From IMG/VR virus record IMGVR_UViG_3300008108_000039, positions 103,480 through 167,479 of that record: 64,000 nt of DNA; one strand, given 5' to 3'. Numbering within the stretch: position 1 is the first letter of the stretch; every line of letters begins with the position of its first letter. A program made the translations under genes and the position numbers. A model generated the notes under the pieces. That model did no database searches. It was not told the origin of the DNA and worked only from the letters and a program-made list of their open reading frames with translations. This DNA is from a virus. This document shows, in pieces, positions 4,403-56,160 of this stretch.

Positions 4403-4406
4403 ATTA

Positions 4407-24872: not shown

Positions 24873-27480
24873 TTTGTTTCTTTTTTTCATTTATATGTTT
24901 ACGAAGTAATTGTCTAAATTCACTTAGATGATGAGGATTACGATCAAAATATTCATTCACAATATATTGATGAAGTTCTGCCAAAAGATTTCTTTGTCTT
25001 AAAGCATTTAATAATTCAGATGGTGAACCTAATCCAATAGCATTATCTGGTGTAACAATATAATGTGAATTTCCTGGTTGTAATACTACTGAAGCTATAA
25101 GAGGACCATCATTTAAACGAATAATATAAATAGCATTATTTCCATTTTCAAATACTCTTCTAACACTACCATTAGCTCCTAATAAATTTTGACGACGAGA
25201 TGCACCTCTATTATTTGTTACTGGTACTTCTTCAAAAGAAGTTGGAAATCTTCTAAGTACTCTTTGACCAAGAGCATTAAATCCAGGAGTTAAATTATAA
25301 GCTTGTGCTATTTGTCCTAATGAAGTTCCTCCTTCTATTGGAGCAGCTTGTGGACGAGGAGCATTTGGTTGACCTGCTGGTCTACCTCTTCCCGCTCTAA
25401 CTGCAGCATTAGCTTGAGCTGCTGCTTGACCAGGAACTTGTCTTGGTCCTAATAATTGTGCTGCTAGTGATGAAGGTACATTTGCTTTAACTAATTTACC
25501 TGATTGATCTGATATTTTATAGCTACTACTTGGATTATTAACATTAATAAGTAAAGCAGTATCTCCATTCATAGCAGGTTTATATGGACCATCAGTTATT
25601 GGAGGATTATTAGCTATAAAGGCTCTTTTAGATTCAATAGTCATTGGAGATCTTTCATTACCTAATAATGTTAATAAATCATTATTGTTATAAGCTTGGT
25701 TTGTGGCTCTTAGATAAATAAAATAAGATTTCCAATCATTTTCACTTAGACTTTGAGAGTGTCTATTAGCTTTTCTCCAATCACCATCACTACCATAACT
25801 CCTAGATAATCTTTGTTGACGAGGATTTACTGTAGCTGGCATAAGTATAAAAGGAGATACTGGATCTGTTGTAGTTAATATAACATCACCATCAATTATT
25901 CTTTTACTATAAGGAATAGCCTTAATAACATTTATTAAAGCATCTTTATCTATTGTTTTAGGAATAACACCATAATATTTATTAAATAAATTTAATGCAT
26001 TTTGTTGGAATCCTTCATTATCTTTCTGTCCAGCAAACACTGCTTGTACATCTTCATTATCAAATGATACTTGTTTAAGTTTACCATCTTCTATTTTATA
26101 TGAAGTAAATGAATTAGAATCTAATATAATATTATCTTTTACAATAACAGCTGAATCAGGATCTGTTTTTGCTTTATCTATTACTTTATCTACTATTTCT
26201 TTATCTATAACTTCATCCTGTGTTAATTTAATTAAAATTTTTAAAGGAATTTTATCTAGTTCTGAGTAGTCAAGTAAATATTTAGATGTACGTTTATTTA
26301 ATTTAATATTAGGATATTCATCATCTTCAGTATACAATCCTACTTTTATATCATCTTCTAATGTTAATAAAACAATAGCTTTATTATCTTTAGTTACATA
26401 CAATCTTTGATATTGATTAAGATTTATTTTATTAGTCTTTACAAGATATTTTTTAAGATCAAAAGTTGAATCTCCATCAAGTATATTTAAATTAAAATTA
26501 CTTCTTATTAAAGAAGCAATAGATAATTGATCTTGTTTAGAAAATTTATCTATATATTTTATTAATGTTTCTATATCAATAATACCTTCTGTTGTTGCTA
26601 TCATATTAGCAATTTGAGGGTATTGGGGTAAATATTTTAAAATAAAAACATCGTTACTTATATCACTAAACAATCTATCTAATCCTGATCTAACAATTAG
26701 GTATTGTTTTTTAGTATTGAATGGCTCTTTCATCCATTGTTTAATACTAATAGGATTATTTTTAAATAATTCACTTTCTTTTTCTTTTTTAGAAAAAGGA
26801 ATATATTTTAAAATATTTTTTACATTAGGAATATCTTTTAACCAAGGAACTCTACTATTTAATTCTTCCCAACCAAATGGACCTTCCATTCCTGGGCTAT
26901 TATTTCTATTGGTAAATTTATATGTTCCATTATCTAATACTTGTAAAGCAACAAAACTTAATTTATTACTATCAGATAAATTGTTATTTTTAGCTAAATA
27001 AAATGTTGGATAATTATATGAAGCACCATATCTATATTTACCCCAATAACTCCCTCCAGGAGTTGTAATACACCATTTAGTTCCACCTGGTGTTTTTTGA
27101 GAGGCTCCATAAGTAATGCAATTACCTTGTTTAGCACCATTCCAAATAGTAATACCATTATCGTTGTATACTACATCTGGTGTTTGATCTTCATCCTCAT
27201 CATTACTTGATACTTCAGTTCCAGGTGAAGATGTTACTATTTTAATTAGTTTAGATAAAGAATATTTACGTAAATCTTTATCAGTTACTTTAGGTGAATC
27301 TTTTAATTTATCAAAACGTTCAATATATTTTTTAAGTTGTTCATCACTAACTTGAATATTTAAATCCTCAGCTTCTTCTTTAAATTTATTTAATAGATAT
27401 TTAATCTCACCTTCTGAGTATTCATTCAATGGAAAGAGATTATGTACAACGTGTAATATAAATTTATCTATTGGTTTCAT
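24859..27480 (-). CDS. Large hypothetical protein with GTKWCI (PcfJ-like) motif and AT-hook-like GRGRP
   Basis: 873-aa ORF with CITYG...GTKWCIT...YW..Y and RAGRGRPAG. Confidence 0.7.
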   Translation of the reverse strand: MKPIDKFILHVVHNLFPLNEYSEGEIKYLLNKFKEEAEDLNIQVSDEQLKKYIERFDKLKDSPKVTDKDLRKYSLSKLIKIVTSSPGTEVSSNDEDEDQTPDVVYNDNGITIWNGAKQGNCITYGASQKTPGGTKWCITTPGGSYWGKYRYGASYNYPTFYLAKNNNLSDSNKLSFVALQVLDNGTYKFTNRNNSPGMEGPFGWEELNSRVPWLKDIPNVKNILKYIPFSKKEKESELFKNNPISIKQWMKEPFNTKKQYLIVRSGLDRLFSDISNDVFILKYLPQYPQIANMIATTEGIIDIETLIKYIDKFSKQDQLSIASLIRSNFNLNILDGDSTFDLKKYLVKTNKINLNQYQRLYVTKDNKAIVLLTLEDDIKVGLYTEDDEYPNIKLNKRTSKYLLDYSELDKIPLKILIKLTQDEVIDKEIVDKVIDKAKTDPDSAVIVKDNIILDSNSFTSYKIEDGKLKQVSFDNEDVQAVFAGQKDNEGFQQNALNLFNKYYGVIPKTIDKDALINVIKAIPYSKRIIDGDVILTTTDPVSPFILMPATVNPRQQRLSRSYGSDGDWRKANRHSQSLSENDWKSYFIYLRATNQAYNNNDLLTLLGNERSPMTIESKRAFIANNPPITDGPYKPAMNGDTALLINVNNPSSSYKISDQSGKLVKANVPSSLAAQLLGPRQVPGQAAAQANAAVRAGRGRPAGQPNAPRPQAAPIEGGTSLGQIAQAYNLTPGFNALGQRVLRRFPTSFEEVPVTNNRGASRRQNLLGANGSVRRVFENGNNAIYIIRLNDGPLIASVVLQPGNSHYIVTPDNAIGLGSPSELLNALRQRNLLAELHQYIVNEYFDRNPHHLSEFRQLLRKHINEKKKQNENK

Positions 27481-31672: not shown

Positions 31673-32458
31673 TTATACGTTAATTTTAATACTTGTTGGT
31701 AGTAATTCAGTAGCTGGTTTAAAGTCTGGGTTTTCTAGTTTATATATTTCGTATATATTTTTGAACATATTAAAATTAGTAGCAATATTATCTATGGCTT
31801 TTAATTGCCATCCTTTACCTTGTATGTTATCTCCTTTTCCTTCACCACGAGTAGCAGCTTTTAACCACAATATTCCTGTTCTTTCAATAAGATTATCATG
31901 AGTTTCATTCCAAGCTATAGCATAAGCTGCTAACTGCAAATCATGACTAGTATGAAGTGAATTTGATGTTTTAATATCTATTAACCATAATTGGTTATTT
32001 ATTTTTACTATTAAGTCTGCGGTTCCTGCGAATTTATGAGCATCGGAAAATAAATGATATTCTGTTGTTACTAATTCTGGCTTATGTGTATTCCAAAACT
32101 CAGCAAATTTTAAAATCATTTTCCAAACATCTAAACTATATTGAGCTTCACCATATTCATTAATCCATGGGATTTCATTACCATTTAAAAATGATTCTAT
32201 AGCGTTGTGTACTTGAGTACCTTCAGCAGCAGCTTTAGAAGCAATAACATCACTATTATGTCCTACATCTTTAAGCCAATTATGAAAAAACTGGTTTTTA
32301 GGAAAATAATTTAAAATTGATGTTACGGAAGGATAATATTCACCATTACGCCTATAAAATCGTGAGTCTAAAACATTAATTTGTTTATCTCCTTCAGAAT
32401 ATTCAACAATACGTTTTATTCTAGGATCTTTTATAATATTTGCATTTTTATCAATCAT
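31673..32458 (-). CDS. PD-(D/E)XK exonuclease (Cas4/lambda-exo-like)
   Basis: YPSVTSIL, EGTQVH, FAGTADL, IDIKTS, LQLAAYA. Confidence 0.9.
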   Translation of the reverse strand: MIDKNANIIKDPRIKRIVEYSEGDKQINVLDSRFYRRNGEYYPSVTSILNYFPKNQFFHNWLKDVGHNSDVIASKAAAEGTQVHNAIESFLNGNEIPWINEYGEAQYSLDVWKMILKFAEFWNTHKPELVTTEYHLFSDAHKFAGTADLIVKINNQLWLIDIKTSNSLHTSHDLQLAAYAIAWNETHDNLIERTGILWLKAATRGEGKGDNIQGKGWQLKAIDNIATNFNMFKNIYEIYKLENPDFKPATELLPTSIKINV

Positions 32459-33396
32459 ATTAATTGTAATTTTTTTTCAAGCAAACTTTGTAATGTTAAA
32501 GGTTTAGTTTGCCCAATAGTGTTTAAAAATACTTCAAAACCAATCTCATTAGCATCTTTACCTTCTAATTCTACCATGTAAACTTCTTTACCAAATGACA
32601 TAAGTTTTTCAGCATGCTTTAGAGCATCTTTTTTAGCATCATTGTCTAATGCAATATATATTCTATCTACAGAAGATTTAACTAATTTTTCCATTAGTTT
32701 ATCATGTAATACTTTTCCTAATAAAGGAATACAATTGCGTTTAATTGTTATAGCATCAAACATACCTTCACAAAGTATAATAGGTGCATCCCAATTTATA
32801 TATAATTCAAAACCTATAATGTCTTTAGAAGACACAGGTGGATTTTTATATTTTCTTAAAGAAGGTTCTTTATAATCTCTAGCTGTAAAATAATTTAATA
32901 TTCCATTAGCATCATAAGATGGAATTATTATTCTACCTTCATATTTTCCATCTTTACAAAATCCTATGTTATATTTTATAATATCGTCTTTAGTAATATT
33001 TCTTTTTTTTAAAAATTTTAAAGCATGTTTAGATTCAATTTGTGCTATTTTATCTTCAACTGGTTTTGATAGGGGTATAAATTCTTGAGGAAGTGTTAGT
33101 GAGGTATAGGGTATATGTTCTTCTTTATTTGCGGGTTGGATTAATAAATCCAAATCTTTAAATTTATCAGGAGAAGTATTAATTCTTTTAAATAATGAAC
33201 GTATAGTTTTACCTTTAGCATTGCATATCCAACAATGCCAAAAATTTTCACGTTTTGATGTAGTTTGTAAAGATACTTCTAGTTTATTTTTGTGGTGTAA
33301 ACAAAAAGGACATTTGAAAGCATAATTACCTTTACTTGTAGCTTGACTTTTACCTAAAACAGATTCTACTAATACTAGTAGGGCAGTATTTTCCAT
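32455..33396 (-). CDS. DNA primase (Zn finger + TOPRIM)
   Basis: CPFC...HCWIC, RIIIP, KYKNP, CEGMFDA, LDNDA, KDANE. Confidence 0.92.
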   Translation of the reverse strand: MENTALLVLVESVLGKSQATSKGNYAFKCPFCLHHKNKLEVSLQTTSKRENFWHCWICNAKGKTIRSLFKRINTSPDKFKDLDLLIQPANKEEHIPYTSLTLPQEFIPLSKPVEDKIAQIESKHALKFLKKRNITKDDIIKYNIGFCKDGKYEGRIIIPSYDANGILNYFTARDYKEPSLRKYKNPPVSSKDIIGFELYINWDAPIILCEGMFDAITIKRNCIPLLGKVLHDKLMEKLVKSSVDRIYIALDNDAKKDALKHAEKLMSFGKEVYMVELEGKDANEIGFEVFLNTIGQTKPLTLQSLLEKKLQLI

Positions 33397-33413
33397 AGGG
33401 GAAATATAAGATC

Positions 33414-33854
33414 TTATTTTGACTCTAACAAATCCTTAGTAAAAAATTTACCTAATATGTTATCATTATAAGATCTATCTTTACTAAATAGCACTTCTTC
33501 TTTGCATTGATAATGCATTTCATAATAAGTTAGTGCTTTTTTAGTTTTACATTGCATTAAAATCCAACATTCAAAATTATTTCCACCATATTCTTTAATA
33601 TCAGCAAGTAGTTGTTTATTTGACCCCCAATAAATCTTCCAATCACTTTCAGTACGAATTACTTCATGTGTTGGTTTACGACCAGGTCCTGTTTGCTCAG
33701 CAAGTTGTTTTTTAGTAAGTTTATGTTTTTTGTTATTCCAATAAACTTTTTTACCAATATAAAATTTTCCAGTTATGTTATTGGTAATTTTATAAACAAA
33801 ACCATGATATTTTTCAGGCTCAATTGGTGCCCAACTTTTCCATTTAAGTGTCAT
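33414..33854 (-). CDS. GIY-YIG endonuclease
   Basis: GFVYKITNNITGKFYIGKK, ESDWKIYWGS, YNDNI. Confidence 0.85.
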   Translation of the reverse strand: MTLKWKSWAPIEPEKYHGFVYKITNNITGKFYIGKKVYWNNKKHKLTKKQLAEQTGPGRKPTHEVIRTESDWKIYWGSNKQLLADIKEYGGNNFECWILMQCKTKKALTYYEMHYQCKEEVLFSKDRSYNDNILGKFFTKDLLESK

Positions 33855-34164
33855 ATTTTATAACGAATGTCATGTCTGTGTTAGGAGATATTAATATAGG
33901 TTTACCAAATTTAGCTACAGCTAATAATTCATTGTCATCATTATATAGGCCTATAGCTGTAGTATATGGATTAAATTCAGAGCCAGATGGTAAAGATCCA
34001 GTAGCAAAATATTTTAAAGATCCACTAGCATAACTACCTTCTACTAAAGTTGGATTATATGATAAATTATAATCACTTTCTCTAACTAAGCAACGTACTT
34101 CGTTTTCGTAAACGATATGTTCGTTTTTAAAAGTTAAAGCAAAAGATCCTGTATGTGTTGGCAT
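33844..34164 (-). CDS. Baseplate-type structural protein, C-terminal module
   Basis: IGLYNDDNELLAVAKFGKP matches VGMYNDNNELLAVAKLSKP at the C-terminus of 45418..46398. Confidence 0.75.
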   Translation of the reverse strand: MPTHTGSFALTFKNEHIVYENEVRCLVRESDYNLSYNPTLVEGSYASGSLKYFATGSLPSGSEFNPYTTAIGLYNDDNELLAVAKFGKPILISPNTDMTFVIKYDT

Positions 34165-34173
34165 TTTATTTAA

Positions 34174-34926
34174 TTAACATTGTGTACTAGCTTGTGATCC
34201 TACTTCACCAGTATTTGTATCTAAATTATAAGTAATAAAATATACATCATCACGAACAAATGAATATCCTTGAATCACACTCATAAGATTAATACTAGAA
34301 TATAATATCATTCCTGGTTGTAAACCTGAGCTTAGGTATAAACTATAATCTGTTGAATTAAGATATGCAAAACTATAACCAGCAATACATATAGAATTGG
34401 CATCATTATTTAATTGAACATAAATAAAGTTACCAGGAGCTGTTGATGGTGATGGTGTAATTGATGGTGTTCTTGATGGAGTAACAGTAATTGAAGGTGT
34501 TGGTGTCGGGGTAACATTCAATGATAATGATGGAGTTACTGATGGTGTTCTAGTAGGAGTTGGTGTAGGAGTTCTACTAACAGTTCTAGAAGGAGTAATA
34601 CTTGGAGTAACAGTAACAGATACTGTTCTAGAAGGTGTTATAGAAGGTGTTACAGTTATAGAAGGAGTTCTAGTTGGAGTTGGTGTTGGGCTTGGTGAAA
34701 CTGCAACTACTGTTAAGGTTTGTTGATTCCCACAAGCTTCATTATCATTTACTACAATAAAAACAGTGTCACTATTATCAGGTACAGAATAAAATCTACC
34801 TGCTTGTAATTGAGCAAATGTTAAACCACTCTCTAACCTATTAGCAAGAGATACAGAACTTGTATAAACACTATAAGGTCCATTAGCAGTACCAGAAGAT
34901 AAATATAAATAAACAGATTGTGGCAA
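34174..34926 (-). CDS. Mucin-like Thr/Pro/Ser-repeat protein (putative virion glycoprotein)
   Basis: TTG start. Central [11 protein letters not shown]-type repeats flanked by small Cys-containing domains. Late-type motif directly upstream. Confidence 0.75.
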
Positions 34927-34948
34927 GTTATATTATTTTATATAAATA

Positions 34949-36643
34949 TTAATTTTCACGTCTTTCTTCAGGTTTATACCATACTATTCGATTGTGATTG
35001 ATAGGAGATGCTAATAATATTGCAGGTTTTAAATTACCTTTACGAGTTTCTTGAAACATATAGCTCATCCATGTTTGTTCATAAGGATGTGCCCATTTAG
35101 TATCAAGAAACATTTTTTTATTACCTTCTTTACTTACAATCATAGGCCAATTAGCATAATATATTTCACCTGTAATGTAACTTAATTCATCTAATACTTC
35201 AATTTTATTAAATTGAGTACGAGGAGCATTAGGATCTAAACCATTTATTGGTAATTTTGAATAATAAGGCCATATTTCTTCCCTAATATTTTGAGGAACA
35301 TTATACCAAGATACTTGAATATTGTTATCCATGTATACTTCTGTATATGACAATTTAAGAAAATCAAATTTTTCCTTAAGCATTATTTTATGGATTTTAT
35401 CATATAAATTAGGGATATATTGTCTAAATCCATTTCTACAGAATTTACCTTCCATAGATAAATCATGCAAACACATATCATCCTCTAAAAACACATAATA
35501 ATCGCTATCTGACTCAGCAAAATGTTCTGCTACAATTTGACGTCCACCACATATACCGCCGTTTTTACCGGTTATTATGTGCTCGAATCCATATTTATCT
35601 GCTATTATTTTATTATCAATTCGCGCTTGTTCATCTGTAGAGTTATCAATTAATATTTTGCGAGTTTTATCTAACCATTTAGGATGTTTTTCATAACTAG
35701 ATAATATTGTTTGTAATTGTTGAGGAAAATTAAATGTTAAAATGTATAATGATGTTTTAATATTATCTAAAGATAAACTAGGTTGAGCATATTGTATTCG
35801 TTTTTCGGGTATAGGCTCTAACTGAACTTTTTCTTCATCTAATGCTTGAATAAATTTAATTATTAATCCATTTTCATCAAGAGCAAAACGTCTATATTTT
35901 TCAGGTTGTAAATAAGACATTATAAGAAATATACTTTCTTCAGTTCCCATTAATCCTTCTGATAGTGATCTATCTACTAAAGAATAATAAAGTCCATTAG
36001 CTTCATGTATAGCTTCTTTAGTTCCACCAAATAATCCACCTCTACAAACCCATTTTGCAGTATCATTACAGTATTTATTTATTTCTTTAAATTTAAAACC
36101 ATGAATTTCATCTGTAGATTCATATGGGTATGATAAAAATAAAAATGGATTTAAATAAGAAGTAATTTTATCTAATACTTTTTGTTCTACAAAATATTTC
36201 TCATAAACTGTATTTGTAATACCTGCATCTAACCAGATAAAGTAATTAGTATTAAATGGATTCCAAATAGTAGAATCATGTAACATAAACATTTTAGACA
36301 TTACAATTGGATTATACCATTCATTAGATGCTTGAGGACTATTAGGTAACCATCCTCCAGGACCTGTCAAATTAAGCCATTCAGGATTAGTTCTTATTTG
36401 TTGAGTTTTATCCCAAAAAGGAGAATACAATCTTTTTACATCATCTAATTCATATATTTTTACAAAAGTATTTTCTTTTGAACGTTTAGTCCAAACTAAA
36501 TGTTCATATTCTTTAGGAATAAAGATAATTAAATTAGCATCTATATCTAAAAAATGATTAAAATGATGAATATAATGATCAAAAGATCGTCCTGGTCTAC
36601 TTATATTCCACAATCCTGTTACTATGGTTAAATCTTTATTCAT
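34949..36643 (-). CDS. HtrL/YibB-like glycosyltransferase fused to a GT-A (GT2-like) domain
   Basis: TIVTGLW, SKMFML, NPFNTNYFIWLDAG, GGLFGG, GTEE; second domain with YILTFN, IDNS, NGGICGGR, FLEDD. Confidence 0.8.
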   Translation of the reverse strand: MNKDLTIVTGLWNISRPGRSFDHYIHHFNHFLDIDANLIIFIPKEYEHLVWTKRSKENTFVKIYELDDVKRLYSPFWDKTQQIRTNPEWLNLTGPGGWLPNSPQASNEWYNPIVMSKMFMLHDSTIWNPFNTNYFIWLDAGITNTVYEKYFVEQKVLDKITSYLNPFLFLSYPYESTDEIHGFKFKEINKYCNDTAKWVCRGGLFGGTKEAIHEANGLYYSLVDRSLSEGLMGTEESIFLIMSYLQPEKYRRFALDENGLIIKFIQALDEEKVQLEPIPEKRIQYAQPSLSLDNIKTSLYILTFNFPQQLQTILSSYEKHPKWLDKTRKILIDNSTDEQARIDNKIIADKYGFEHIITGKNGGICGGRQIVAEHFAESDSDYYVFLEDDMCLHDLSMEGKFCRNGFRQYIPNLYDKIHKIMLKEKFDFLKLSYTEVYMDNNIQVSWYNVPQNIREEIWPYYSKLPINGLDPNAPRTQFNKIEVLDELSYITGEIYYANWPMIVSKEGNKKMFLDTKWAHPYEQTWMSYMFQETRKGNLKPAILLASPINHNRIVWYKPEERREN

Positions 36644-37450
36644 TTATTTTAAATAACCCTTTTGTACAAAATACATATAATTTTCATCTATTTTATTATG
36701 TCTAAATAAATTACAACCTTCCAATCCTTCATGAGAAGTATGTCTTAATACAGGAAAAGTTTCAACTCCACCTCTTTGAGTCCATTCTTCATGTGTTATT
36801 AAAGGTGTATCATGTTCATAAAAAGTAACTAAACGTGATATTCCTTGTTTAGACATATAAGCAGACACTACAATATCATCGGACCATGATTTATCAACAA
36901 AATCAGTAAAAAAATCATCTTCAAACCATTTACGTCTATAAGATATTGTTTTATAGTGTTGTAAATGATTAACATATACATTTTTAAAAACAGATACTAC
37001 ATAATAATTTCTAACATCATCAAACACTGTTGGATCTTCTGCTCTAACTCCGTCATACCCAACAGCTGTATTTGGGAATCTATATTGATTTTTTACTTGT
37101 TCATCTACCATTTTAGGATGGTAAACCAAATCATCATCGCAAACAATAATAATAGCTTCAGGGTCATCAACACGTTTAATAGTATGAGCTAATTTAGTAA
37201 TTGAACCTAAATCTTCTAATCCTTCAAATATTTTAAATTTAGGATTATTAACAGATAATTCTCTTAACCATCCAGGAATAATATATTCTTCCCCAGTTTG
37301 TTTATAAACACCAGGCACATTAAAGTGAATTTCATATTCGCCTTCATAATCCTGATTAATAAGTGAACTAATGTTACTTTTAATTCCAGAATCATAGTCT
37401 TGAGTTATTCTACTTGGAATTGTTGTTAATGTTACAATTACTTTATCCAT
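36644..37450 (-). CDS. GT-A fold glycosyltransferase
   Basis: VIVTLTTIPSR, DLGSITKL, IIVCDDDLVY, SDDIVVS. Confidence 0.8.
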   Translation of the reverse strand: MDKVIVTLTTIPSRITQDYDSGIKSNISSLINQDYEGEYEIHFNVPGVYKQTGEEYIIPGWLRELSVNNPKFKIFEGLEDLGSITKLAHTIKRVDDPEAIIIVCDDDLVYHPKMVDEQVKNQYRFPNTAVGYDGVRAEDPTVFDDVRNYYVVSVFKNVYVNHLQHYKTISYRRKWFEDDFFTDFVDKSWSDDIVVSAYMSKQGISRLVTFYEHDTPLITHEEWTQRGGVETFPVLRHTSHEGLEGCNLFRHNKIDENYMYFVQKGYLK

Positions 37451-38291
37451 TTTTTTCTATATATATTATATCGTGATTTTGTAATAATTGATAAATAAAA
37501 TCTTCTGCTCTTCCATATGAATCTCCGCTTTTTTGTCTAAATTCCCAAAAACCTGAATTAGGATAAGGTAAACTATATTTAATTGGGAATGAATATGCAG
37601 GACGACCATATTCATTTACTGGTCTCCAGTCTGTTTCTTGGTCCCATGTTACACATCTAAAATCAATTTGGTGTTTTTTACAATAATACCCCATAAGAGT
37701 ATCATCATTGTCACTAGATAATAATAATTCTCTATTAAAATCTTCTTTAAAATATTTCCTTTTATAACTAGCTGAATGCCAATGACCAGGTACGGTTAAT
37801 TGAAGATCATATTTGACAGGAAAATAAAAATGAGTTGTTCTTAATACATATTTTTTAATGTTATCTTCTTCCCATTCTCTTTTTTCAACAGGAGTATCAC
37901 CTCTAAAAACAATAACTGAATTAGGGTATTGTTTTAATTTTTTTAAATGGTATTCTAACATATCTTCATGATATACATGATCATCATCACATATAATTAA
38001 TATATCTTCAGGATCTTGTGATATATCTAGAACACCAGTAATTTTAACTATAGGACCAAAATCTTCATCTACTCTATGTATAATTAGTTTAGAATTTTGC
38101 AAAGCAAATTGCTTTAAGTTATCATTTATAATATATTCTTCATCATTATTATTTTTATAATAATAAGGAATACTTAATACTACTTTATAATCTTTATCAG
38201 TATTTTGATTTAAAAGTGATGTTAAATTTTGTTCAAAAGATTCCCACAAATTTATTCTTATAGGAACTGTTGTTAATGAAATATATATCAT
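37443..38291 (-). CDS. GT-A fold glycosyltransferase, paralog of 36644..37450
   Basis: ISLTTVPIR, DFGPIVKI, IICDDDHVY, NDDTLMG. Confidence 0.8.
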   Translation of the reverse strand: MIYISLTTVPIRINLWESFEQNLTSLLNQNTDKDYKVVLSIPYYYKNNNDEEYIINDNLKQFALQNSKLIIHRVDEDFGPIVKITGVLDISQDPEDILIICDDDHVYHEDMLEYHLKKLKQYPNSVIVFRGDTPVEKREWEEDNIKKYVLRTTHFYFPVKYDLQLTVPGHWHSASYKRKYFKEDFNRELLLSSDNDDTLMGYYCKKHQIDFRCVTWDQETDWRPVNEYGRPAYSFPIKYSLPYPNSGFWEFRQKSGDSYGRAEDFIYQLLQNHDIIYIEKNG

Positions 38292-38292
38292 A

Positions 38293-39090
38293 TTATAATG
38301 TTTTTAAAAAACTTAAATTACATTCTAATGTAGAAGTGTTGTTAGGATAATCTAAATCTTTTATAGGATAATCTTGATTGTCTGGTGTTAATTCTGTAAT
38401 ATATTTTCTATTTACAAATGAAAATTCAGCTACTCTTGGAACTGTATGCCCTTCATATATAAATTCACCTCCCCAATTATTGCCATGAACATGTGTTAAA
38501 ATAAAGTGTTTATTAAGTTTTTCCATCATTGTTACAAATCTTTCTTGGTTTTGTGGTTGTTCTAACCAATGTACTTCAACTACAATTCCACAAACAAATG
38601 TTGCTAAATCATCAATATCAGCATGAATAAAATAATCATATTCTGCCCCTTCTGTATCAATTTTTAAAAATATATCACCTTCAATTTTAAATTCATTATA
38701 ATGTTCTCTAACGTCTTTAACACTTAAAGTATCAGATAAATTTTTAACAGTTTCAGAAATTACTTCTAATGCTTTTCTAAGCTTTTTTATTTTAGTTATA
38801 CTTTTATCTTCATTTAAATCACTAAGTGCTTTAGCTAAAATATTTTTTCTTATATCTAATTCTTGAAGTAAACTTAATTCTTTATCATTATTTGGTTTAT
38901 TTGAGCCTAACCCTTCAGGATAAAAATATTGTTCACCTTGACCATAACTTTTATCACCACCATAACCATAAGTAAATAACGTAGTACATTGTTTAAGTAC
39001 TATTTCTGATGCAACATAACCACCATCGCTTTTATTACCTAAGCGAATTTTTGGGGAATTAATTTTGTAAGGTTTAAAATATTTTAACAT
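38293..39090 (-). CDS. FkbM-type SAM methyltransferase (probable glycan O-methyltransferase)
   Basis: RLGNKSDGGYV, LKIDTEGAEY, VVEVH, HVHGNNWG, EFSFVNR, YPIKDLD.P. Confidence 0.8.
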   Translation of the reverse strand: MLKYFKPYKINSPKIRLGNKSDGGYVASEIVLKQCTTLFTYGYGGDKSYGQGEQYFYPEGLGSNKPNNDKELSLLQELDIRKNILAKALSDLNEDKSITKIKKLRKALEVISETVKNLSDTLSVKDVREHYNEFKIEGDIFLKIDTEGAEYDYFIHADIDDLATFVCGIVVEVHWLEQPQNQERFVTMMEKLNKHFILTHVHGNNWGGEFIYEGHTVPRVAEFSFVNRKYITELTPDNQDYPIKDLDYPNNTSTLECNLSFLKTL

Positions 39091-39100
39091 AATTATTAAT

Positions 39101-40087
39101 TTAATAAGGAAATTCTATAAAATGGTCTTCGTAGTATTTTTTTAATTTGTCATAATTTTTATTTATGAAATCTTGTTTTCCTATCATTGATGGCTCCATA
39201 TTCATACCCCAATTCCAAAATCTATCTTCAGGATATGAGTTTATTTCAAAAGATTTAGTTCTAGAAAAACCAAATTCCTCAGTCCATGGAAAACATTTTA
39301 CATCTAATAAATTAAAAATTATTGATAATATTTGTTCAGATTGTAAATTCCACATGCTGTGTGTTCCTAAGAAAAAATATTCTTCTTTTTTAAGAACTAA
39401 AATATCATAAATAATATTGTTTAATAACTCAAAAAAAGGTTTAATCATTTCTTTATCAGGAAATCTAAGTGTTCTAAAATTACCATCAGTTACTGTAAAA
39501 TAATTAATTATTTCTTTATCTGTTAATTTATATTCATTATTAATATAAGTAGCACATGTTTTTAAAAATTTGCAATTTGTTTCATCATATGAACCTCCAG
39601 CAGGTGTTGAAATTATTTTATTTTCTAAAGACTCTGTAAAATTGGGATACGGATGTGAAGTTATAGGTTTATAAAAATAATTTTCTAATTTTTGATAATA
39701 TTCATCATTTATTACAGGTAAAACATCACAATCCATAAAAATAAATCCTAAATAATTTGTTACATTTTCCCATAAAAATACAAATCGTCTTAATAAAGTA
39801 GGAATTTTTACATTATTTTTTATAAAATATTCAGCATATTCTGCTTCATTATCAATTAATGGAGGTATTTTTTCTAACTCAATAGACCAAGGATAATTTT
39901 TTCGTAATTCATCCAAATTTTTAATAATTAAATTAGGCATAAAAGATACAGACGAAAAATAATCAACATCATCTGTCATTATAAATACATCAAAATATCT
40001 ATATGAAGAACATGTTTTCAGATTATATAATAATCTAGCTTTATGTGTAGGTCCTAAAGCAAATTGAACTATTAGTATTTTATCCAT
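39101..40087 (-). CDS. Putative glycosyltransferase (DxD motif)
   Basis: FIMTDD and FIFMDCDV motifs; located inside the GT cluster. Confidence 0.55.
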   Translation of the reverse strand: MDKILIVQFALGPTHKARLLYNLKTCSSYRYFDVFIMTDDVDYFSSVSFMPNLIIKNLDELRKNYPWSIELEKIPPLIDNEAEYAEYFIKNNVKIPTLLRRFVFLWENVTNYLGFIFMDCDVLPVINDEYYQKLENYFYKPITSHPYPNFTESLENKIISTPAGGSYDETNCKFLKTCATYINNEYKLTDKEIINYFTVTDGNFRTLRFPDKEMIKPFFELLNNIIYDILVLKKEEYFFLGTHSMWNLQSEQILSIIFNLLDVKCFPWTEEFGFSRTKSFEINSYPEDRFWNWGMNMEPSMIGKQDFINKNYDKLKKYYEDHFIEFPY

Positions 40088-41356
40088 TTAATCTATTTTA
40101 TGTTCTACTCGTTCACACCAACCTTTATTATCACTGTAAGCCCAATATACTACTCTAGATGGTTTTTTATTTACTAGAAAAAACTCTTCATAATGGATAT
40201 TTTGTCCTTTATTAAAATTATCTAGTTCTGTTCCTTTAATTATTTTAGTACTAATAGAGTTACCTATTTCATCATCAAATGCTATTAATACAAATGAATA
40301 ATCATTACTAGTAAATTGTGCTTTATTAACATTAACTAAATAATAAAAAGATTCCATAAAGGATTGTTCCCACAATTCATCATTTTCAATAACTGGGTTG
40401 GGAGGGTAATTATTATCTAGTGTGTATTTTTGTACTGCTTTTTTCTTAAAGTTAAAACCAGCATATTTTTCATAATCACGCAATGTTCTTACAGTCCCTA
40501 AATCATATCCTGTTAAATCAATATTTGGGTCTTCTTCAGTACGTAATAAACATCTAATCTTTTTACGGGCATATTCTTGTTTATTAAACCAATCTACACC
40601 TAATTTAGAATCATCATCCCATTTAAGTCTTCCTGCTCTTTCTTCTCTCATAGTAGAATGCCAAATAACTATTTTATGAGGATGAAAGAAATCATATCCG
40701 TGAGTATATGAACGAACAGTTAAATTTATTTCTTCACCACTAAAATAAATATCAGGATCGTGTTTTATTTCACGAGCCCATTCGCTTCTAGCGAAATCAA
40801 AATGACCACATAAAAATCTGGACATAGGAGGTTCAGTCATTTCTTCATATCCATGTAATAATCCTGGTCTAATAAATATAGTACCATGAGGATAAAAACA
40901 AGCAAATTGTGATTGCCAGGGTTCCATTGATCTGCCTGCAGGATCATTAAATGGATCATATAAAGGTGAATAGCCTGCTATAATAGGTTTATAACCTTTT
41001 TGTTCAAGATCATTATGCATTTGGATTAAAGTTTCATCCCAATCTTGAGCAAATCGATGATGAGAATCTAATTGACAAACATAATCTTCGTCTGTTAGTA
41101 ATTGTTCATTAATTATAGCTCTAGCCCAAGGTAATCCTTTAGCTTCTTTATAATCACATTCAAATATTTTAAATCGTTTATCAGATTTAAATTCTGTAAG
41201 ATCGTCAAAACCATCTTCAGGGTGGAATTGTCTACAAATTCCAAAATGAATGCGTTTAGGATATTTTGCTTTATCTAAAGCATCCTTAATAGTAGGTATT
41301 AGTTCAGGATCTCTATAAGCTGGTAAATGTAATAATATAGTTGGTTTTTTACTCAT
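40088..41356 (-). CDS. GT60-family polypeptide/hydroxyproline GlcNAc-transferase-like protein
   Basis: AYRDPEL, AKGLPWAR, QLDSHHRFAQDWD, FSGEEI...RSYTHGYDFFHP, LGTVRTLRDYEKYAG. Confidence 0.85.
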   Translation of the reverse strand: MSKKPTILLHLPAYRDPELIPTIKDALDKAKYPKRIHFGICRQFHPEDGFDDLTEFKSDKRFKIFECDYKEAKGLPWARAIINEQLLTDEDYVCQLDSHHRFAQDWDETLIQMHNDLEQKGYKPIIAGYSPLYDPFNDPAGRSMEPWQSQFACFYPHGTIFIRPGLLHGYEEMTEPPMSRFLCGHFDFARSEWAREIKHDPDIYFSGEEINLTVRSYTHGYDFFHPHKIVIWHSTMREERAGRLKWDDDSKLGVDWFNKQEYARKKIRCLLRTEEDPNIDLTGYDLGTVRTLRDYEKYAGFNFKKKAVQKYTLDNNYPPNPVIENDELWEQSFMESFYYLVNVNKAQFTSNDYSFVLIAFDDEIGNSISTKIIKGTELDNFNKGQNIHYEEFFLVNKKPSRVVYWAYSDNKGWCERVEHKID

Positions 41357-42605
41357 AATTTATTTTTTGTTCTATAACATCACACCAACCTTTTAATTTA
41401 CTATGTGGCCATACTCTCCAACTATAAGGTTGTTTATTATCTTCATATTCTCTCCAAATATGAATAAAATTGTCTTTAGGATCTATTGTTAGTATATTTT
41501 TTAATTCATGTTCATCACAATCTTGTCTATAAAGATCATTTCCATTTTCATCTAACAAAGCTACTACAAATAAATCATAATCATTTTCAGGTAAAGATCC
41601 TTTATAAACATCAATACAAACTTTTATTTTATTGCATAAACCTGATTCATAATCTCCTTGTGTTGGTGGATGTTTATGTTCTAAAGTATACTTATGTATT
41701 TGTCTAGTTTTAAATTTTAAACCAGCATATTTCTCATAATGTTCTAATGTTCTTTGAGTTCCAAACCAATATTTTCCAAATTCTTTTGCAATACACCCTC
41801 CACACCCTTCATTCATACCAAATAAAGCTCTAAAACGAGCATATGATCTTTTATCATGCTCACCAAAATTAGAATTATCATCCCAATGTTTCTTTTTACC
41901 TTCTCTAGTATATTCATGCCAAGCATAAACTTTATGAGGATGAAATAAATCATATCCCCAGGTATAAGCACGAACGGCTAGTGATGTTTCTTCACCATGG
42001 AAATAAAAATTAGGATCATATGGAACTTCTTTAACAAATTTACCTAAGGTAAATATAAAATGAGCTGATATAAAGCGAGCAAATACAGGTTCTATCATAT
42101 CTTTCCATCCATCTAATCCTTGTGGCCTTAAAAATACAGCTCCTTCAGGTAAAAATCTATCTATATTTAACATCCAACATTCATTAATACGATCATTAGG
42201 ATCTTTATCTGGAAAGTATGATGGTAAATACGTTGATAATAGAGGTTTATAGTATCCAACACATCTTAAATAATTTAAAATATCAATTAATTCAGTATCC
42301 CAATTTTTAATAAAGCGATGATGTGAATCTAATTGAAAATAATAATCTTCGTCTTGGTAATATTCTTGAATTTTAGCTCTAGCCCAACATACACCTTGAG
42401 CTTCATTATAGGGTATATCTATAATTTTAAATCTAGGATCATCTTTATATTGTTCTAAAGTATCCCATTCGTCTTCTACAGAATGTTGCCAAGCAATGCA
42501 TATTGTTAGTCTATCAGGATTAGCAGCATTAGATAATAAATTATCTAGTGTAGATAATAATTCAGGATCTCTATAAGCAGCTATTGAAACAAAGATTTTA
42601 GACAT
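41349..42605 (-). CDS. GT60-family polypeptide/hydroxyproline GlcNAc-transferase-like protein (paralog)
   Basis: IFVSIAAYRDPEL, GVCWAR, QLDSHHRF..WD, VPYDP.FYFHGEE, RAYTWGYDLFHP, WHEY, GTQRTLEHYEKYAG. Confidence 0.88.
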   Translation of the reverse strand: MSKIFVSIAAYRDPELLSTLDNLLSNAANPDRLTICIAWQHSVEDEWDTLEQYKDDPRFKIIDIPYNEAQGVCWARAKIQEYYQDEDYYFQLDSHHRFIKNWDTELIDILNYLRCVGYYKPLLSTYLPSYFPDKDPNDRINECWMLNIDRFLPEGAVFLRPQGLDGWKDMIEPVFARFISAHFIFTLGKFVKEVPYDPNFYFHGEETSLAVRAYTWGYDLFHPHKVYAWHEYTREGKKKHWDDNSNFGEHDKRSYARFRALFGMNEGCGGCIAKEFGKYWFGTQRTLEHYEKYAGLKFKTRQIHKYTLEHKHPPTQGDYESGLCNKIKVCIDVYKGSLPENDYDLFVVALLDENGNDLYRQDCDEHELKNILTIDPKDNFIHIWREYEDNKQPYSWRVWPHSKLKGWCDVIEQKINYE

Positions 42606-42648
42606 AACTATAATATATAACTTTTATTTTGAATTTCCAACTTGTAAA

Positions 42649-45414
42649 TTAAAAGCAAGCAAATATATCATTATTATTAACATATACTGTTATATTAATA
42701 TCAGTACTTGTTGAAACAGTTATATTATACCCACAATATGTAGGATCATTAGAAGGACAACCTCCCCCTGTTTGAGCATTAAAATATACAGGAGTTCCTA
42801 CACCATCTATTACTCGAACATAAAAATTATTTCCATTAGTTACATCAACGCTACCCATTGTATTACATGTTGTTTGATCTATAGTTGGTGTAAAACTAGT
42901 ATAATTTACATTATCATTTGACCATTGAACAGTGCATATAGTATTTGTTTGAGAATCACCATATTTAGCATTTACATTTATTGAAGATTGTGCTGGAACG
43001 GGTGATGTACTAGGTGTTGGTGTTAAGGATGGTGTTGGTGTTAAGGAGGGTGTTAATGATGGAGTAGGTGTAGGTGATGGACAAACACTACAAGCTGAAA
43101 TTACTGTAGCAACATTACCACTAACAGTAGCTGTTACAAAGTTTCCAGCAAATGAAATATACACTGTTTGACCATTAAAGGCACTAAGACAACTTGCTGT
43201 GAATGTAGTACAGCTACAGAAATTAGAAGAATTACCTTGTAAATTACATGATGTAGCTCCAATTCCAGAACATGCACTATTAGAATCAGTTGAAATTAAT
43301 GCATTAAATAAGAATGGTGATGTTGATGGAGTTGGCGTTATGCTCGGAGTAGGAGTAATACTTGGAGTTGGCGTTATACTTGGAGTTGGCGTTATAGAAG
43401 GAGTTCTAGTAATACTTGGAGTAGGTGTTATACTAGGTGTTGGTGTAATACTTGGAGTAGGAGTAATACTTGGAGTTGGAGTTATTGATGGCGTTGGGGT
43501 TACAGAAGGAGTTCTAGTAATACTTGGAGTAGGAGTAATTGATGGAGTTGGTGTAATACTTGGTGTTGGTGTTATGCTTGGGGTAGGTGTTATACTTGGA
43601 GTAAGACTTATACTTGGGGTTGGTGTTATTGATGGAGTTAATGATGGAGTAGGTGTTATACTAGGTGTTGATGTAATACTTGGTGTTGGTGTAATACTTG
43701 GAGTAGGAGTAATTGATGGAGTTGGTGTAATACTTGGAGTAGGAGTAATTGATGGAGTTGGTGTTAATGATGGAGTTCTAGTAATACTTGGAGTAGGAGT
43801 TATACTTGGAGTAATACTGATAGATGGAGTTATACTAATACTTGGAGTAATACTGATAGATGGAGTTATACTAATACTAGGTGTTAGTGATGGAGTTGGT
43901 GTTATACTTGGAGTAGGTGTAATACTAATACTAGGTGTTACTGATGGAGTAATCGTTATTGACGGAGTAGGAGTTACACTAGGTGTTAAAGTTATACTTG
44001 GTGTTATTGACGGAGTAGGAGTTATTGATGGTGTTGGTGTTACAGAAGGTGTTATTGTAATTGATGGTGTTATACTAGGAGTTCTAGAAGGAGTAATTGA
44101 AATAGATGGTGTTACAGAAGGTGTTATACTAATACTTGGAGTAATACTAATAGAAGGTGTTATACTAATAGATGGAGTTGGAGTAATAGAAGGTGTTACA
44201 GATGGTGTTATACTAGGAGTTCTAGAAGGAGTAATTGAAATAGATGGTGTTATACTTGGAGTAACTGAAGGAGTTACTGTTGGTGTGGTAGTTGGAGTTG
44301 CCGTTGGTGTAATAGATGGAGTTGGCGTTATAGAAGGTGTTACAGTAATACTTGGTGTTATAGTAACACTAGGAGTAATTGTTATAGAAGGAGTAGGAGT
44401 TATACTTGGAGTACGAGTTGGAGTTACAGAAGGTGTTGGTGTTATACTTGGAGTTACAGTAACACTAGGAGTACGACTAGGTGTAATTGAAGGGGAAGGA
44501 GCTATTAAAGCATAGCTAATTCCAAAATCACAGTCAGGGCAAGTTAAATCAACTGTTATTAATCCTAAATTACTTGTAAGTAAACAACCACTACCTAACT
44601 GAGAATTAATAGTATGATATATTTGATATCTTGTATTAGATTTAAAAGAATTCAATGTTACTGTTCCATTACCATTATTAGTAAATAATGATACTTGATC
44701 TGCACTTCCTGATAACACAACTGAGTTAGGTAATAAAGTAGCATTACTTCTAGCTATATCATTTGTTATTACACTAAAAGTTTTATTAACATTATTTGAA
44801 GGAAAAGTAGCATATACAGCTCTTGCTAATGGAGGTAATGGAAATATATCTTGATAATCTTGATTAGTAATTACCATTAATCCTTGAGGGTAAAATACAT
44901 TTCCTATATGAGTTGTATTATAATCATAAAGATTTCCATTCCCATCATCAGTAATATAATAAGCAGATGAGGATAATATTATATTATAAGGTAATAATTT
45001 ATTACCATATATATCTTGTCTAACAGCTAATACACGAATACCAGCATTAGAAGCTGTTGGAAAATTATTTATAAATCGAGGATTTTCATCATAATTAAAA
45101 TATGATGCAGAAGCTGGTTGTTGAGAAGCAGAAACGTAGAAAACTGTATTTGCAATAGAAGAAGTATTAATAATAGAACCACTAAAAGCATGATAAAACA
45201 TATGATTCATTTGATCATAAATCAAACGTTCATATTGACCCTCTGTTACTGGGTCGCTTGTAGTATTAAAACTTCCTGTAAGGTTAGTACCTTTATAGAT
45301 TATTAGGCTTTGATCATTTTGTGGATAGCAATTATAGGATAAATTCCATTGCCTATTAGCAGCATAAGCTACATGCGTAACATCTGATTTGCTTAGTTTT
45401 CTGAATGAAGACAT
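42649..45414 (-). CDS. Baseplate-type N-terminal module fused to a long mucin-like (TPSI/TPTPS)n region and Cys-rich tip domains
   Basis: N-terminal ITDDGNGNL...[14 protein letters not shown], about 390 aa of T/P/S/I repeats, and two Cys-containing C-terminal domains. Confidence 0.85.
43315..44500. repeat. Coding tandem repeat array, 18-nt period (6-aa units such as [18 protein letters not shown])
   Basis: Degenerate repeats such as GGAGTAATACTTGGAGTT, with higher-order exact duplications around 43800-43880. Confidence 0.95.
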
Positions 45415-53938: not shown

Positions 53939-55747
53939 TTAATAAATAACAACTCTACCTTGTATATCTGTGTTAGGATATCTAACTTCGAATATTGATG
54001 GGTCTAATGAAGGGTAAATATTACCATTTTTAGTAGCTCCCATTATATCATAACCATATTGAGAATAAATAACCCCAGTACTATCTTGTTTATTTACAAT
54101 TTCTACTTTTACTACTGATTGTACTCCTTTAACTTGTAAAAGTTTAGAATATATATCAGATATAATAATTGGTTGATTAATTTGCCAAGAATTAATATTA
54201 AAATGATCTTGTAAAACGGCTATACAACTTTGCAATACATCTTTATTATTGTATCCTGTTGAAGTAGTAATATCAAAATTAACTCCTATATTAATATAGA
54301 AAGCATCTCTAATATTAATAGCATCAGTAACCATTCTATATTCATTTAAATAAGTAGTTAAATTTTGTTTTAATGTAGTAGAAGCAGTAGTTAATTGTTT
54401 AGATGCATTATAAGCTAAAATATATAAATCTAAGGATAATGGATTATCAGATATTCCTCTTTCATTAAAGTCTTGAGTAATATAAGCTTTAGCTATACTT
54501 CCATAATTTGAAGGTAAAGATAAAGTTCTTACTATATAATCATTTTTAGTAACAGCACGTAATTGAGAAGAATAAGCATATAAAGCATTATTTCTAATTT
54601 CTTCAATTTCATCTCCTCCTCTACCACCTACAGCAGGAGTAGGATTATTTGATACCACACTATTAATAATAGTACTAGCCAAACCTCCAGAATAACCTGA
54701 TTTAAATGTAACTCCTGTTGTATCAATTACTGTTAAATCATTTACAGGTACATTTGAAGTAATACCTCCTCCTACTAAATATCTTACAGTTAATGTAGTA
54801 TTAGATGGAGCAATACCATATTCTTGAGTATAAAATATAGAGGCTTGATTAAAATTATCTCTTAATAAAGATATACCTGGTACTAAACCTAATTGAATAT
54901 TATCAGGATTAGGTAAAATAGTATTATCATTTCTAGTAGATACCCCAGCTCCAAATTCTAATTGCAATGTATCATCTGATAAAAATCTAGATACAAATCT
55001 ATATGGTACACGTTGAATTGTAAGTAAATAAGGTACCTGGTCTGTTACTGATGTTGGATTATTAATTTTATTAAATATACTAGATTGGGCAAGATAAGGT
55101 ACTTCGTACCATTTATTTCCTTGAGTATCCGTTATGTCTAGTACTTGTAATATATTATTATCACTTACAGTAGCGGTTGAAAATTTTTGTGGAGTATTAA
55201 ATGAAAATGTTGTTGATTTTATTTCGGCTGAGATAGCTTGTACTGATTTTTTAACTAAAAAATAGGTAGCATCAACATATGTGATAACAGCACTTCCAGT
55301 ATTACTAAAATCTATTTGTTCAGTTGTTATAAACTTAGTTCCTGTAGAAGTTGATGTAATAACTGTATTTTCAGGAACTAATAAGGCAAAAGATGTATCA
55401 GGAATTGTTATTCCACCAGCTACTTTATTAGGCATTAATTGGTAAATATCAACGGTTGTTGATGAAGCGTATGATACTTTAGGGCGATAACCTAAAACAT
55501 AAGATAAAGCATATAAATTTGCTTTTTCTTTAGCATATAATAAAAAGTTTTCTTGAACTTGAGTATCTAAATAAAATGACATTACATCACCAACATAAGA
55601 TGCCATTTCAATAAACATATTTCCAGGGTTAGCATCTGAAAAATCATTGTATGCTGTTGGAAAGTATGTTTTAGCATAATTTATAAGGTTTGCCTTAAAA
55701 TCACTAAAATTTTTATTTAAATACGATATATTTTTTTCTTCGTTCAT
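53939..55747 (-). CDS. gp6: Baseplate wedge protein (T4 gp6 / gpJ-like)
   Basis: YNDFS, YVGDVMSFYLD, LGYRPK, GGRGGDEIEEIR, QLRAVTKNDY. Confidence 0.9.
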   Translation of the reverse strand: MNEEKNISYLNKNFSDFKANLINYAKTYFPTAYNDFSDANPGNMFIEMASYVGDVMSFYLDTQVQENFLLYAKEKANLYALSYVLGYRPKVSYASSTTVDIYQLMPNKVAGGITIPDTSFALLVPENTVITSTSTGTKFITTEQIDFSNTGSAVITYVDATYFLVKKSVQAISAEIKSTTFSFNTPQKFSTATVSDNNILQVLDITDTQGNKWYEVPYLAQSSIFNKINNPTSVTDQVPYLLTIQRVPYRFVSRFLSDDTLQLEFGAGVSTRNDNTILPNPDNIQLGLVPGISLLRDNFNQASIFYTQEYGIAPSNTTLTVRYLVGGGITSNVPVNDLTVIDTTGVTFKSGYSGGLASTIINSVVSNNPTPAVGGRGGDEIEEIRNNALYAYSSQLRAVTKNDYIVRTLSLPSNYGSIAKAYITQDFNERGISDNPLSLDLYILAYNASKQLTTASTTLKQNLTTYLNEYRMVTDAINIRDAFYINIGVNFDITTSTGYNNKDVLQSCIAVLQDHFNINSWQINQPIIISDIYSKLLQVKGVQSVVKVEIVNKQDSTGVIYSQYGYDIMGATKNGNIYPSLDPSIFEVRYPNTDIQGRVVIY

Positions 55748-55749
55748 TA

Positions 55750-56160
55750 TTAATTAAATTGAACTGTAATTTGATCAGATGCTCCAGATATATTTAATCT
55801 GTAGCTTATTGTTATATTTAATGTATTATAATCAGGATTGGAATTAATATCAATATCAGTTAATGTTACTTCAGGTATAAAAGTATTTACAGCGTTTATT
55901 ATTTTAAATCTTATTATTTCATTATTATCTTCATTTATTCCTTCAAATAATGAACGCCTTAAATCAGCCCCAAATTCCGGGTTCATTACTCTTTCACCCT
56001 TATCAGTTAATAATAAATTAATTAAATTTGACCTAATTTGATCTTTAGTACTATAAGTTCTATTAAAAGCACTAGGAGAACTAAAAGGTAGTGATATTCC
56101 AATTGCAATATTTTTTTGTAAATCTAATGGATTTACGCGTATTGTTTGTTGAATTGGCAT
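55750..56160 (-). CDS. gp25: Baseplate wedge / sheath initiator (T4 gp25-like)
   Basis: NLINLLLTDKGERVMNPEFGADL. Confidence 0.92.
   Translation of the reverse strand: MPIQQTIRVNPLDLQKNIAIGISLPFSSPSAFNRTYSTKDQIRSNLINLLLTDKGERVMNPEFGADLRRSLFEGINEDNNEIIRFKIINAVNTFIPEVTLTDIDINSNPDYNTLNITISYRLNISGASDQITVQFN

Follow-up and report, generated by a model that had tools for sequence, protein, structure and literature searches.

GT60, a glycosyltransferase (GT) family, is known from protists. Gnt1 of Dictyostelium is a cytoplasmic GT60 enzyme that acts on hydroxyproline of Skp1, and Dictyostelium Gnt2 and the OGNTs of Trypanosoma cruzi, also of GT60, place alpha-linked N-acetylglucosamine (GlcNAc) on Thr of mucin-like repeats. 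Here we describe a cassette of seven enzyme genes, two of them GT60 paralogs, which lies between the genes of two proteins with long Pro/Thr/Ser (PTS) repeats in the freshwater virus record IMGVR_UViG_3300008108_000039 (167,479 bp, about 99% complete). We analysed the right-hand 64 kb of this record (the window), to which all coordinates refer unless the record is named. The cassette probably constitutes a phage-encoded, cytoplasmic system for mucin-type protein O-glycosylation, whose acceptors would be the stalks of the fibre proteins on either side, rich in Thr/Ser and punctuated by proline.

The phage enzymes share with the protist ones the sequence family (PF11397) and the same DxH-containing conserved core, and their putative acceptors, like the T. 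cruzi mucins and Dictyostelium PsA, are Thr/Pro-rich repeats. Like Gnt1, they are soluble and predicted to be cytoplasmic. They differ in being viral, in lacking a Golgi anchor, and in travelling with an HtrL-GT2 fusion and variable, putative sugar modifiers. Hydroxyproline, the acceptor used by Gnt1, is less likely here: the phage genome contains no prolyl hydroxylase of families PF13640 or PF13759, the only two searched, so Thr/Ser are likelier acceptors than hydroxyproline.

Glycosylation of virion proteins by phage-encoded enzymes is already established, and GT60 with Pro-Thr (PT) stalks is a variant of it. According to PMC12363180 and PMC12619734, mycobacteriophages Che8, Corndog, and Myrna glycosylate their own structural proteins with their own GTs (Freeman et al. 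2023); capsid and tail-tube subunits accept the sugar at their C-termini, the hosts are actinobacteria, and the role shown is shielding from antibodies. Common to those phages and ours would be that GTs of the phage act, within the host cytoplasm, on structural proteins of the same phage, whereas our candidate acceptors are predicted, long mucin-like fibre stalks. Homologous cassettes occur in Xanthomonas jumbo phages XacN1 and Xoo-sp13 and Stenotrophomonas phages CM1 and RAS14, which carry a GT60 gene (38–41% identity) and an HtrL fusion (38%) beside baseplate wedge genes and a giant protein. In XacN1, ORF334 is the GT60 gene (39% identical), ORF333 a carbamoyltransferase, and ORF330 the HtrL fusion, and the cassette adjoins wedge genes as well as the gene of a 3313-aa protein whose PT linkers are short. 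These phages have a single GT60 copy, short PT tracts, a cassette on the strand opposite to the baseplate genes, and a carbamoyltransferase where ours has the methyltransferase and GT2 genes. XacN1 virions contain at least two Schiff-stained glycoprotein bands, and its authors suggested that phage transferases make them while assigning neither transferase family nor acceptor (PMC5852040). Together with the homologous cassette, we take these bands as an experimental hint that the system glycosylates virion proteins. Full-text literature searches returned no paper linking GT60 to phages or to PT stalks.

The seven enzyme genes occupy window positions 34949–42605 on the minus strand, with internal overlaps or gaps of 0–10 nt, and are separated from the upstream PTS gene by 43 nt and from the downstream one by 22 nt (Table 1). 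The initial annotation, made from the window sequence without database searches, had named this tightly coupled set, and its gene calls and spacing stand, as do two GT60-like paralogs, an FkbM-type methyltransferase, two paralogous GT-A enzymes, an HtrL-GT2 fusion, and flanking by long Thr/Pro/Ser repeat proteins. Profile searches placed both GT60 paralogs clearly within PF11397 (cut-off 21 bits); their best stretches span profile positions ~97–351 of 352, and in homologs separate stretches span ~2–45 and ~92–351. Paralog A is present in every cassette seen, and paralog B, 39% identical to A and 76% identical to its orthologs in relatives, is an old, separately conserved subfamily. The two GT2-like enzymes are true paralogs (30% identity, E 8e-31), although only one passes the Pfam cut-off. 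For the 328-aa product of the gene annotated as DxD GT-like, we found no Pfam match, and its GT-A fold is a lead from an Atlas feature and structure neighbours that carry Glyco_transf_8/Nucleotid_trans.

None of the seven enzymes or two stalk proteins has a membrane segment or signal peptide (maximum 19-residue Kyte-Doolittle mean <1.5), and therefore any modification would be cytoplasmic, as the initial annotation had proposed from the lack of signal peptides in the mucin-like proteins. Family profile searches of the cassette likewise found no flippase, polymerase, or initiating phosphoglycosyl transferase. With these and membrane segments absent, a soluble, cytoplasmic acceptor is expected.

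A sequence search of solved structures with GT60 returned no match, and we built an AlphaFold2 model of paralog A on 14 homologs (predicted local distance difference test 89; predicted template-modelling [TM] score 0.85). Its N-terminal half is Rossmann-like, with alternating beta strands and alpha helices. The top 50 PDB matches of the model were all polypeptide GalNAc-transferases (GalNAc, N-acetylgalactosamine), with E values down to 9e-12, TM-scores of about 0.5, and 11–14% identity; they include GalNAc-T1, T2, T4, T7, T10, and T12, TgGalNAc-T3, and PGANT9. The predicted GT60 fold is that of the mucin-initiating, GT-A-type polypeptide GalNAc-transferases, so these animal and apicomplexan GT27 enzymes are the closest solved folds to the phage protein. 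The motif LDSHHRF, invariant in 14 sequences of both paralog types, resembles the DxH metal motif of polypeptide GalNAc-transferases, a motif type common to GT27 and phage GT60, and by this analogy it may bind metal. Because fold and motif both match peptide-modifying transferases, a peptide acceptor gains independent support. Unlike GT27 enzymes, phage GT60 has no membrane anchor, and we did not identify a ricin-type lectin domain in it. The family is very large in metagenomes, with more than 6,300 proteins at E <1e-10, many on contigs of 160–187 kb. A further 98-kb viral contig (G071; IMGVR_UViG_3300031857_000065) has four PF11397 matches in two places, 23862–25480 and 42344–44477, one of them inside a 933-aa open frame that is a possible GT60 fusion protein.

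The candidate acceptors are modular. The larger, of 921 aa, begins with a conserved N-terminal anchor and continues with a stalk at about residues 297–700 (DNA about 43315–44526), after which come a domain that contains Cys, another, short PTS linker (DNA about 42997–43080), and a distal domain. The stalk comprises about 400 aa of (TPSITP)-type repeat dominated by Thr, Pro, Ser, and Ile (T118, P104, S83, I67; 75% T+P+S). Its Ser codons are divided between AGT (41) and TCN (39) and its DNA repeats are only about 70% alike, so the composition is selected and not the product of recent slippage. The smaller protein, of 250 aa, has a conserved N-terminus of ~75 aa, a PT/S stalk of about 90 aa (DNA about 34432–34701), and a variable C-terminus; its TTG start is confirmed by homologs, which directly follow the cassette in L014, L156, L158, and L155 (L numbers denote related loci). 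When all 167,479 bp of the genome were scanned, these two proved to be its only genuine PTS-repeat open reading frames (ORFs); since both adjoin the cassette, their placement is far from chance. A 438-aa ORF on the opposite strand (43199–44515, plus) is an antisense reading of the PTS repeat and almost certainly no gene, and the same holds for the plus-strand ORFs opposite the gene at 8357–9514.

The anchor, the first 295 residues of the 921-aa protein, has 145 relatives of 506–1612 aa, most of them with PT stalks and all told varied in their distal parts. Such variation is as expected of receptor-binding fibres, and the Cys-containing distal domains are presumably receptor binders. A model of the anchor is of moderate confidence, with a poorly predicted N-terminus, and ends in an immunoglobulin (Ig)/cadherin-like beta-sandwich; the matches to cadherin/Ig structures are weak and give the protein no assigned place in the virion. 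Matches of both stalk proteins to phrog_15511 fall in or overlap the repeat region.

PTS ORFs were absent from the 11 related loci that we inspected at first, but came to light in closer relatives and when the search was reversed. Every examined phage locus that does not end just downstream of GT60 has a conserved core made up of the HtrL fusion and one or two GT60 genes; the fusion is 38–69% identical across phage GT60 loci, including those of the Xanthomonas jumbo phages. The middle genes of the cassette vary among relatives and include a carbamoyltransferase, a TylF-type methyltransferase, a GT34-like gene, and small unknowns; to judge by sequence, the first three are putative sugar modifiers, which supports a role in glycosylation. 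In the closest lineage (L013/L014; GT60 81% identical), PT proteins lie on both sides of the cassette, in the order PT protein of at least 756 aa, two GT60 genes, carbamoyltransferase, HtrL fusion, 232-aa PT protein, 101-aa gene, GIY-YIG gene, and primase, and the N-terminus of the 232-aa protein is 69% identical to its counterpart in the window. The L155 cassette is likewise placed between PT proteins, one of 2641 aa. In L151, L152, and L154 (GT60 50–54% identical), PT-rich proteins of 643, 1522, and 1174 aa lie directly upstream of GT60. Among these loci, protein P0125 has about 1,030 residues of TPSITP-type repeat; when we compared it by BLASTP with the distal part of the 921-aa protein, only repeats aligned. 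P0124 (1522 aa; L152:5634–10202, plus strand) combines several PT linkers with C-terminal RCC1-like repeats, an unusual distal domain for a phage fibre.

Comparison of loci that bear an anchor homolog in identical synteny showed stalk and cassette present or absent together in several cases. The window, L156, and L158 have both, and L159 and L160 have neither; in the latter two the fibre gene is closely followed by a gene of ~102–103 aa, with a 70-aa ORF between them in L160. L162 has a short Thr run and no cassette, and instead carries a gene of no assigned function and a methyltransferase.

For the reverse test, we searched IMG/VR with a degenerate DNA pattern for 12 residues of the TPSITP repeat, which matched at least 119 stretches, and examined 79 distinct contigs. 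PF11397 was present on 17 of these 79 contigs, and on 14 of the 21 that measure 60 kb or more. Of these 17 contigs, 11 have the tract no more than 8 kb away from GT60, and in all but one of those 11 (10/11) it was upstream on the same strand.

Bacterial genomes gave a second, separate instance of the coupling. Relatives of GT60 are present in 167 species-genome stretches, which span many phyla, and a strict (PT)4 tract was present at 19 of 80 GT60 loci taken from these stretches. For five genomes, picked because their loci had many (PT)4 matches, the rest of each genome served as control. The GT60 locus held every (PT)4 match of the genome in a Saprospiraceae metagenome-assembled genome (MAG; 12.8 Mb, 49/49), Achromobacter (37/37), and Paraherbaspirillum (13/13), and most of them in Ralstonia (54/58) and Trinickia (26/38). 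The Ralstonia tract, on chromosome 1 of Ralstonia sp. 25C (L221:10267–13131, minus strand), is a long C-terminal (PT)n extension of a VgrG from a type VI secretion system (T6SS; Phage_GPD, Phage_base_V, and gp5 C-terminal domain), located beside TssM and TssA about 1 kb from the GT60 gene; this single tract accounts for the 54 matches counted at the Ralstonia locus. In the Saprospiraceae MAG (L169:316–13876), GT60 and a 1087-aa Gly_transf_sug/Caps_synth protein are flanked by crAss-like muzzle proteins (PF25731, PF25729) and by a PT protein of 673 aa; this locus may belong to a prophage of crAss-like type or to a phage contig that was binned with the MAG. Like the phage fibres, the machines to which VgrG spikes and muzzle proteins belong are assembled in the cytoplasm.

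The scheme that we infer, from acceptor, donor sugar, and anomeric linkage through the order of the enzymes to the place of the stalk proteins in the virion and the structural role of the glycan, would proceed as follows. Late in infection, the cassette would share a transcript with the baseplate and fibre genes. Paralog A of GT60, perhaps together with B, would transfer the first sugar, of N-acetylhexosamine type, from a UDP-sugar to Thr/Ser hydroxyls of the (TPSITP)n stalk; that the donor carries GlcNAc is an assumption based on the protist enzymes. Extension of the glycan might then fall to the HtrL-GT2 fusion, the pair of GT2-like paralogs, and the GT-A-like gene product, and the FkbM enzyme might methylate it. 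The resulting dense sleeve could stiffen and extend the stalk (up to roughly 100 nm), guard it against proteases, and project the distal domains, which are variable and contain Cys, outwards.

Several observations weigh against the PT stalks as acceptors. Two relatives, L015 and L018 (GT60 72% and 67% identical), have no PT stalk near the cassette, which instead lies downstream of Ser-rich 'TASSAISSSY' or Gly-Thr-Ser collagen-like fibres and is followed by sheath or neck genes, and the L009 cassette likewise has repeat fibres of these kinds, and no PT proteins, nearby. Conversely, L157 and L161, both syntenic with the window, have a PT stalk and no GT60 within 10 kb. The two PT genes of L157 are adjacent, with only a GT2 gene nearby and no GT60/HtrL cassette between them, so that the cassette looks inserted between two pre-existing PT genes. 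Among the contigs of the reverse test, 62 of 79 carry a PT tract and no GT60, though most of those are small fragments; PT tracts also occur in phages without detectable GT60, and the co-occurrence figures are raw counts over phage contigs that are phylogenetically non-independent. In XacN1, the PT tracts of the 3313-aa neighbour measure only about 20 aa. The loci without stalk, the L157 pair, and the short XacN1 linkers would all suit a cassette that glycosylates virion proteins but has other Ser/Thr-rich fibre or tail proteins as its main acceptor, with PT adjacency marking a hotspot for accessory genes. We consider this unlikely given that unrelated bacteria have the PT tracts of their whole genomes concentrated at GT60 loci, given the joint loss of stalk and cassette in L159 and L160, and a predicted fold that is otherwise found in enzymes acting on Pro/Thr/Ser-rich mucin peptides. 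Coupling of stalk and cassette is strong but not obligatory. The co-occurrence anticipated by the initial annotation was thus recovered in phages and, independently, in bacteria, but not as a strict rule. Its interpretation of mucin-type O-glycosylation keeps its footing in enzyme family, fold, cytoplasmic setting, and co-occurrence, while its order of initiation, extension, and methyl-capping and its bottle-brush or shield role are proposals; it overstated the coupling and misplaced the unit, which sits not inside the baseplate module but at the distal end, next to replication genes.

Other targets of the cassette appear less compatible with the locus. HtrL, GT2, and FkbM families are typical of lipopolysaccharide and capsule loci, this phage has nucleoside diphosphate (NDP)-sugar genes and two more GT2 genes elsewhere, and PT linkers are common in viral contigs without GT60, as would be the case if the stalks were plain linkers and the cassette built or altered a non-protein glycan during infection, whether a polysaccharide of the host surface, a sugar linked to lipid, a small molecule, or the like. 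This we regard as improbable: the enzyme set is all soluble, so a host polysaccharide role fits poorly, and a membrane-anchored enzyme, flippase, polymerase, and priming transferase are all missing. The cassette genes are moreover co-oriented and packed with late structural genes, GT60 is coupled to PT tracts across phyla, and its predicted fold is that of polypeptide transferases. Phage GTs often act on DNA, and the passage of PMC12619734 that cites Pyle et al. 2024 describes other viral GTs as hypermodifying it; the cassette borders replication genes here and lies near DNA polymerase and RNase H genes in Xoo-sp13 and XacN1. Glycosylation of phage DNA is nevertheless highly improbable, because the only thymidylate-synthase-family (PF00303) gene of the genome is an ordinary thymidylate synthase, with best matches to bona fide ThyA (E 1e-65; phrog_160) and not to pyrimidine hydroxymethylases. 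The cassette is also part of a structural operon, lies beside tail fibres or sheath in relatives, and contains members of a family whose known acceptors are proteins and whose fold matches peptide transferases. The thymidylate synthase itself (record 4171–5274, minus strand) measures 368 aa as against about 264–316 aa in solved homologs and aligns in three separate stretches, and therefore carries insertions.

If the flanking stalks are indeed the acceptors, tailed phages produce true mucin-like glycoproteins by means of an enzyme family whose study has until now been confined to protists. This would explain the very common PT/PTS 'linkers' of phage fibre proteins, and glycans on receptor-binding fibres would form a hidden layer of host-range determinants, with bearing on phage stability and immune recognition in therapy. 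Protein O-glycosylation would also extend to T6SS spikes, and glyco-engineers would gain a compact, soluble, cytoplasmic mucin-type toolkit that functions in bacteria. We tentatively raise the broader idea, to which we give slightly less credence than doubt, that GT60 with Pro-Thr tracts represents a widespread, undescribed prokaryotic and viral form of cytoplasmic mucin-type O-glycosylation, acting on contractile-injection appendages that are assembled in the cytoplasm independently of Sec (phage fibres, crAss-like muzzle proteins, and T6SS VgrG spikes), and that phage and bacterial enzymes could be the source pool of eukaryotic GT60, perhaps also GT27, mucin initiators. Cultured phages that bear the cassette exist (XacN1, Xoo-sp13, CM1, and RAS14), making the idea directly testable.

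The phage is a myovirus of low GC content (about 29%), and in its baseplate wedge protein it shares 47% identity with Flavobacterium phage immuto and 44% with Microcystis phage Mel-JY01. On the minus strand, gp25 and the wedge gene are followed by an M15 peptidase gene, genes of 367, 112, 1600, 221, and 326 aa, the 921-aa stalk protein, the seven enzymes, the 250-aa stalk protein, the 106-aa gene, a homing endonuclease, a primase, and an exonuclease. The GT genes thereby adjoin a structural operon, co-oriented with the baseplate and fibre genes and directly after them, and the unit of stalks and cassette closes the baseplate/fibre block and borders the replication genes. A PHROGs search assigned no function to the neighbours in the fibre block, and a promoter and terminator scan gave site counts not above those of shuffles and no internal minus-strand terminator.

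Table 1. Positions of the cassette, its flanking stalk genes, and other features named in the text (window coordinates unless marked as record)
Feature	Position	Strand	Assignment and evidence
Small mucin-like protein, 250 aa, TTG start	34174..34926	-	Second candidate acceptor
HtrL/WlaTC-like domain + GT2-like domain fusion, 564 aa	34949..36643	-	N-terminal HtrL_YibB 3e-11; C-terminal GT2 match weak
GT2-like paralog, 268 aa	36644..37450	-	PF00535 below cut-off
GT2-like GT-A glycosyltransferase, 282 aa	37443..38291	-	PF00535 E 1e-7, above cut-off
FkbM methyltransferase	38293..39090	-	PF05050 E 1.4e-6; TIGR01444 below cut-off; sugar O-methylation proposed
328-aa protein	39101..40087	-	Possibly GT-A (GT8/GT77-like) transferase
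GT60 paralog B, 422 aa	40088..41356	-	PF11397 E 6.7e-48 (164 bits); phrog_24687 3e-106
GT60 paralog A, 418 aa	41349..42605	-	PF11397 E 9.5e-67 (226 bits); phrog_24687 2e-149; candidate initiating polypeptide O-glycosyltransferase
Mucin-like fibre protein, 921 aa	42649..45414	-	Conserved N-terminal anchor aa 1-295; candidate acceptor
106-aa protein	33844..34164	-	Homologous to C-terminus of 326-aa fibre-block protein; kept just before homing endonuclease and primase in relatives
Fibre-block protein, 326 aa	45418..46398	-	C-terminal ~80 aa homologous to 106-aa protein (E 1e-11)
Baseplate wedge protein	53939..55747	-	
gp25	55750..56160	-	
Short-chain dehydrogenase/reductase (SDR)	record 37474-38388		Second sugar cluster; a further SDR
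NDP-sugar 4,6-dehydratase	record 41457-42377		Second sugar cluster
DegT/RfbH-like enzyme	record 42424-43578		Second sugar cluster

A second sugar cluster, which also holds two GT2 genes, lies in the same phage at record positions 31724–45121, about 58–72 kb before the window. To judge by sequence, its NDP-deoxysugar genes could supply a donor for the cassette.

A syntenic gene of ~320–335 aa lies directly upstream of the stalk protein in L156–L162, at the position of the 326-aa gene of the window. What the 326-aa protein has as its C-terminal ~80 aa, the 106-aa protein carries as a stand-alone copy, and the stalk genes thus have such a copy on either outer side. Between the fibre block and the primase is a gene for a 146-aa homing-endonuclease-like protein (33414–33854, minus strand; phrog_447/phrog_314). 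Because relatives carry a SegE-type GIY-YIG gene at the same spot, this junction may be prone to recombination.

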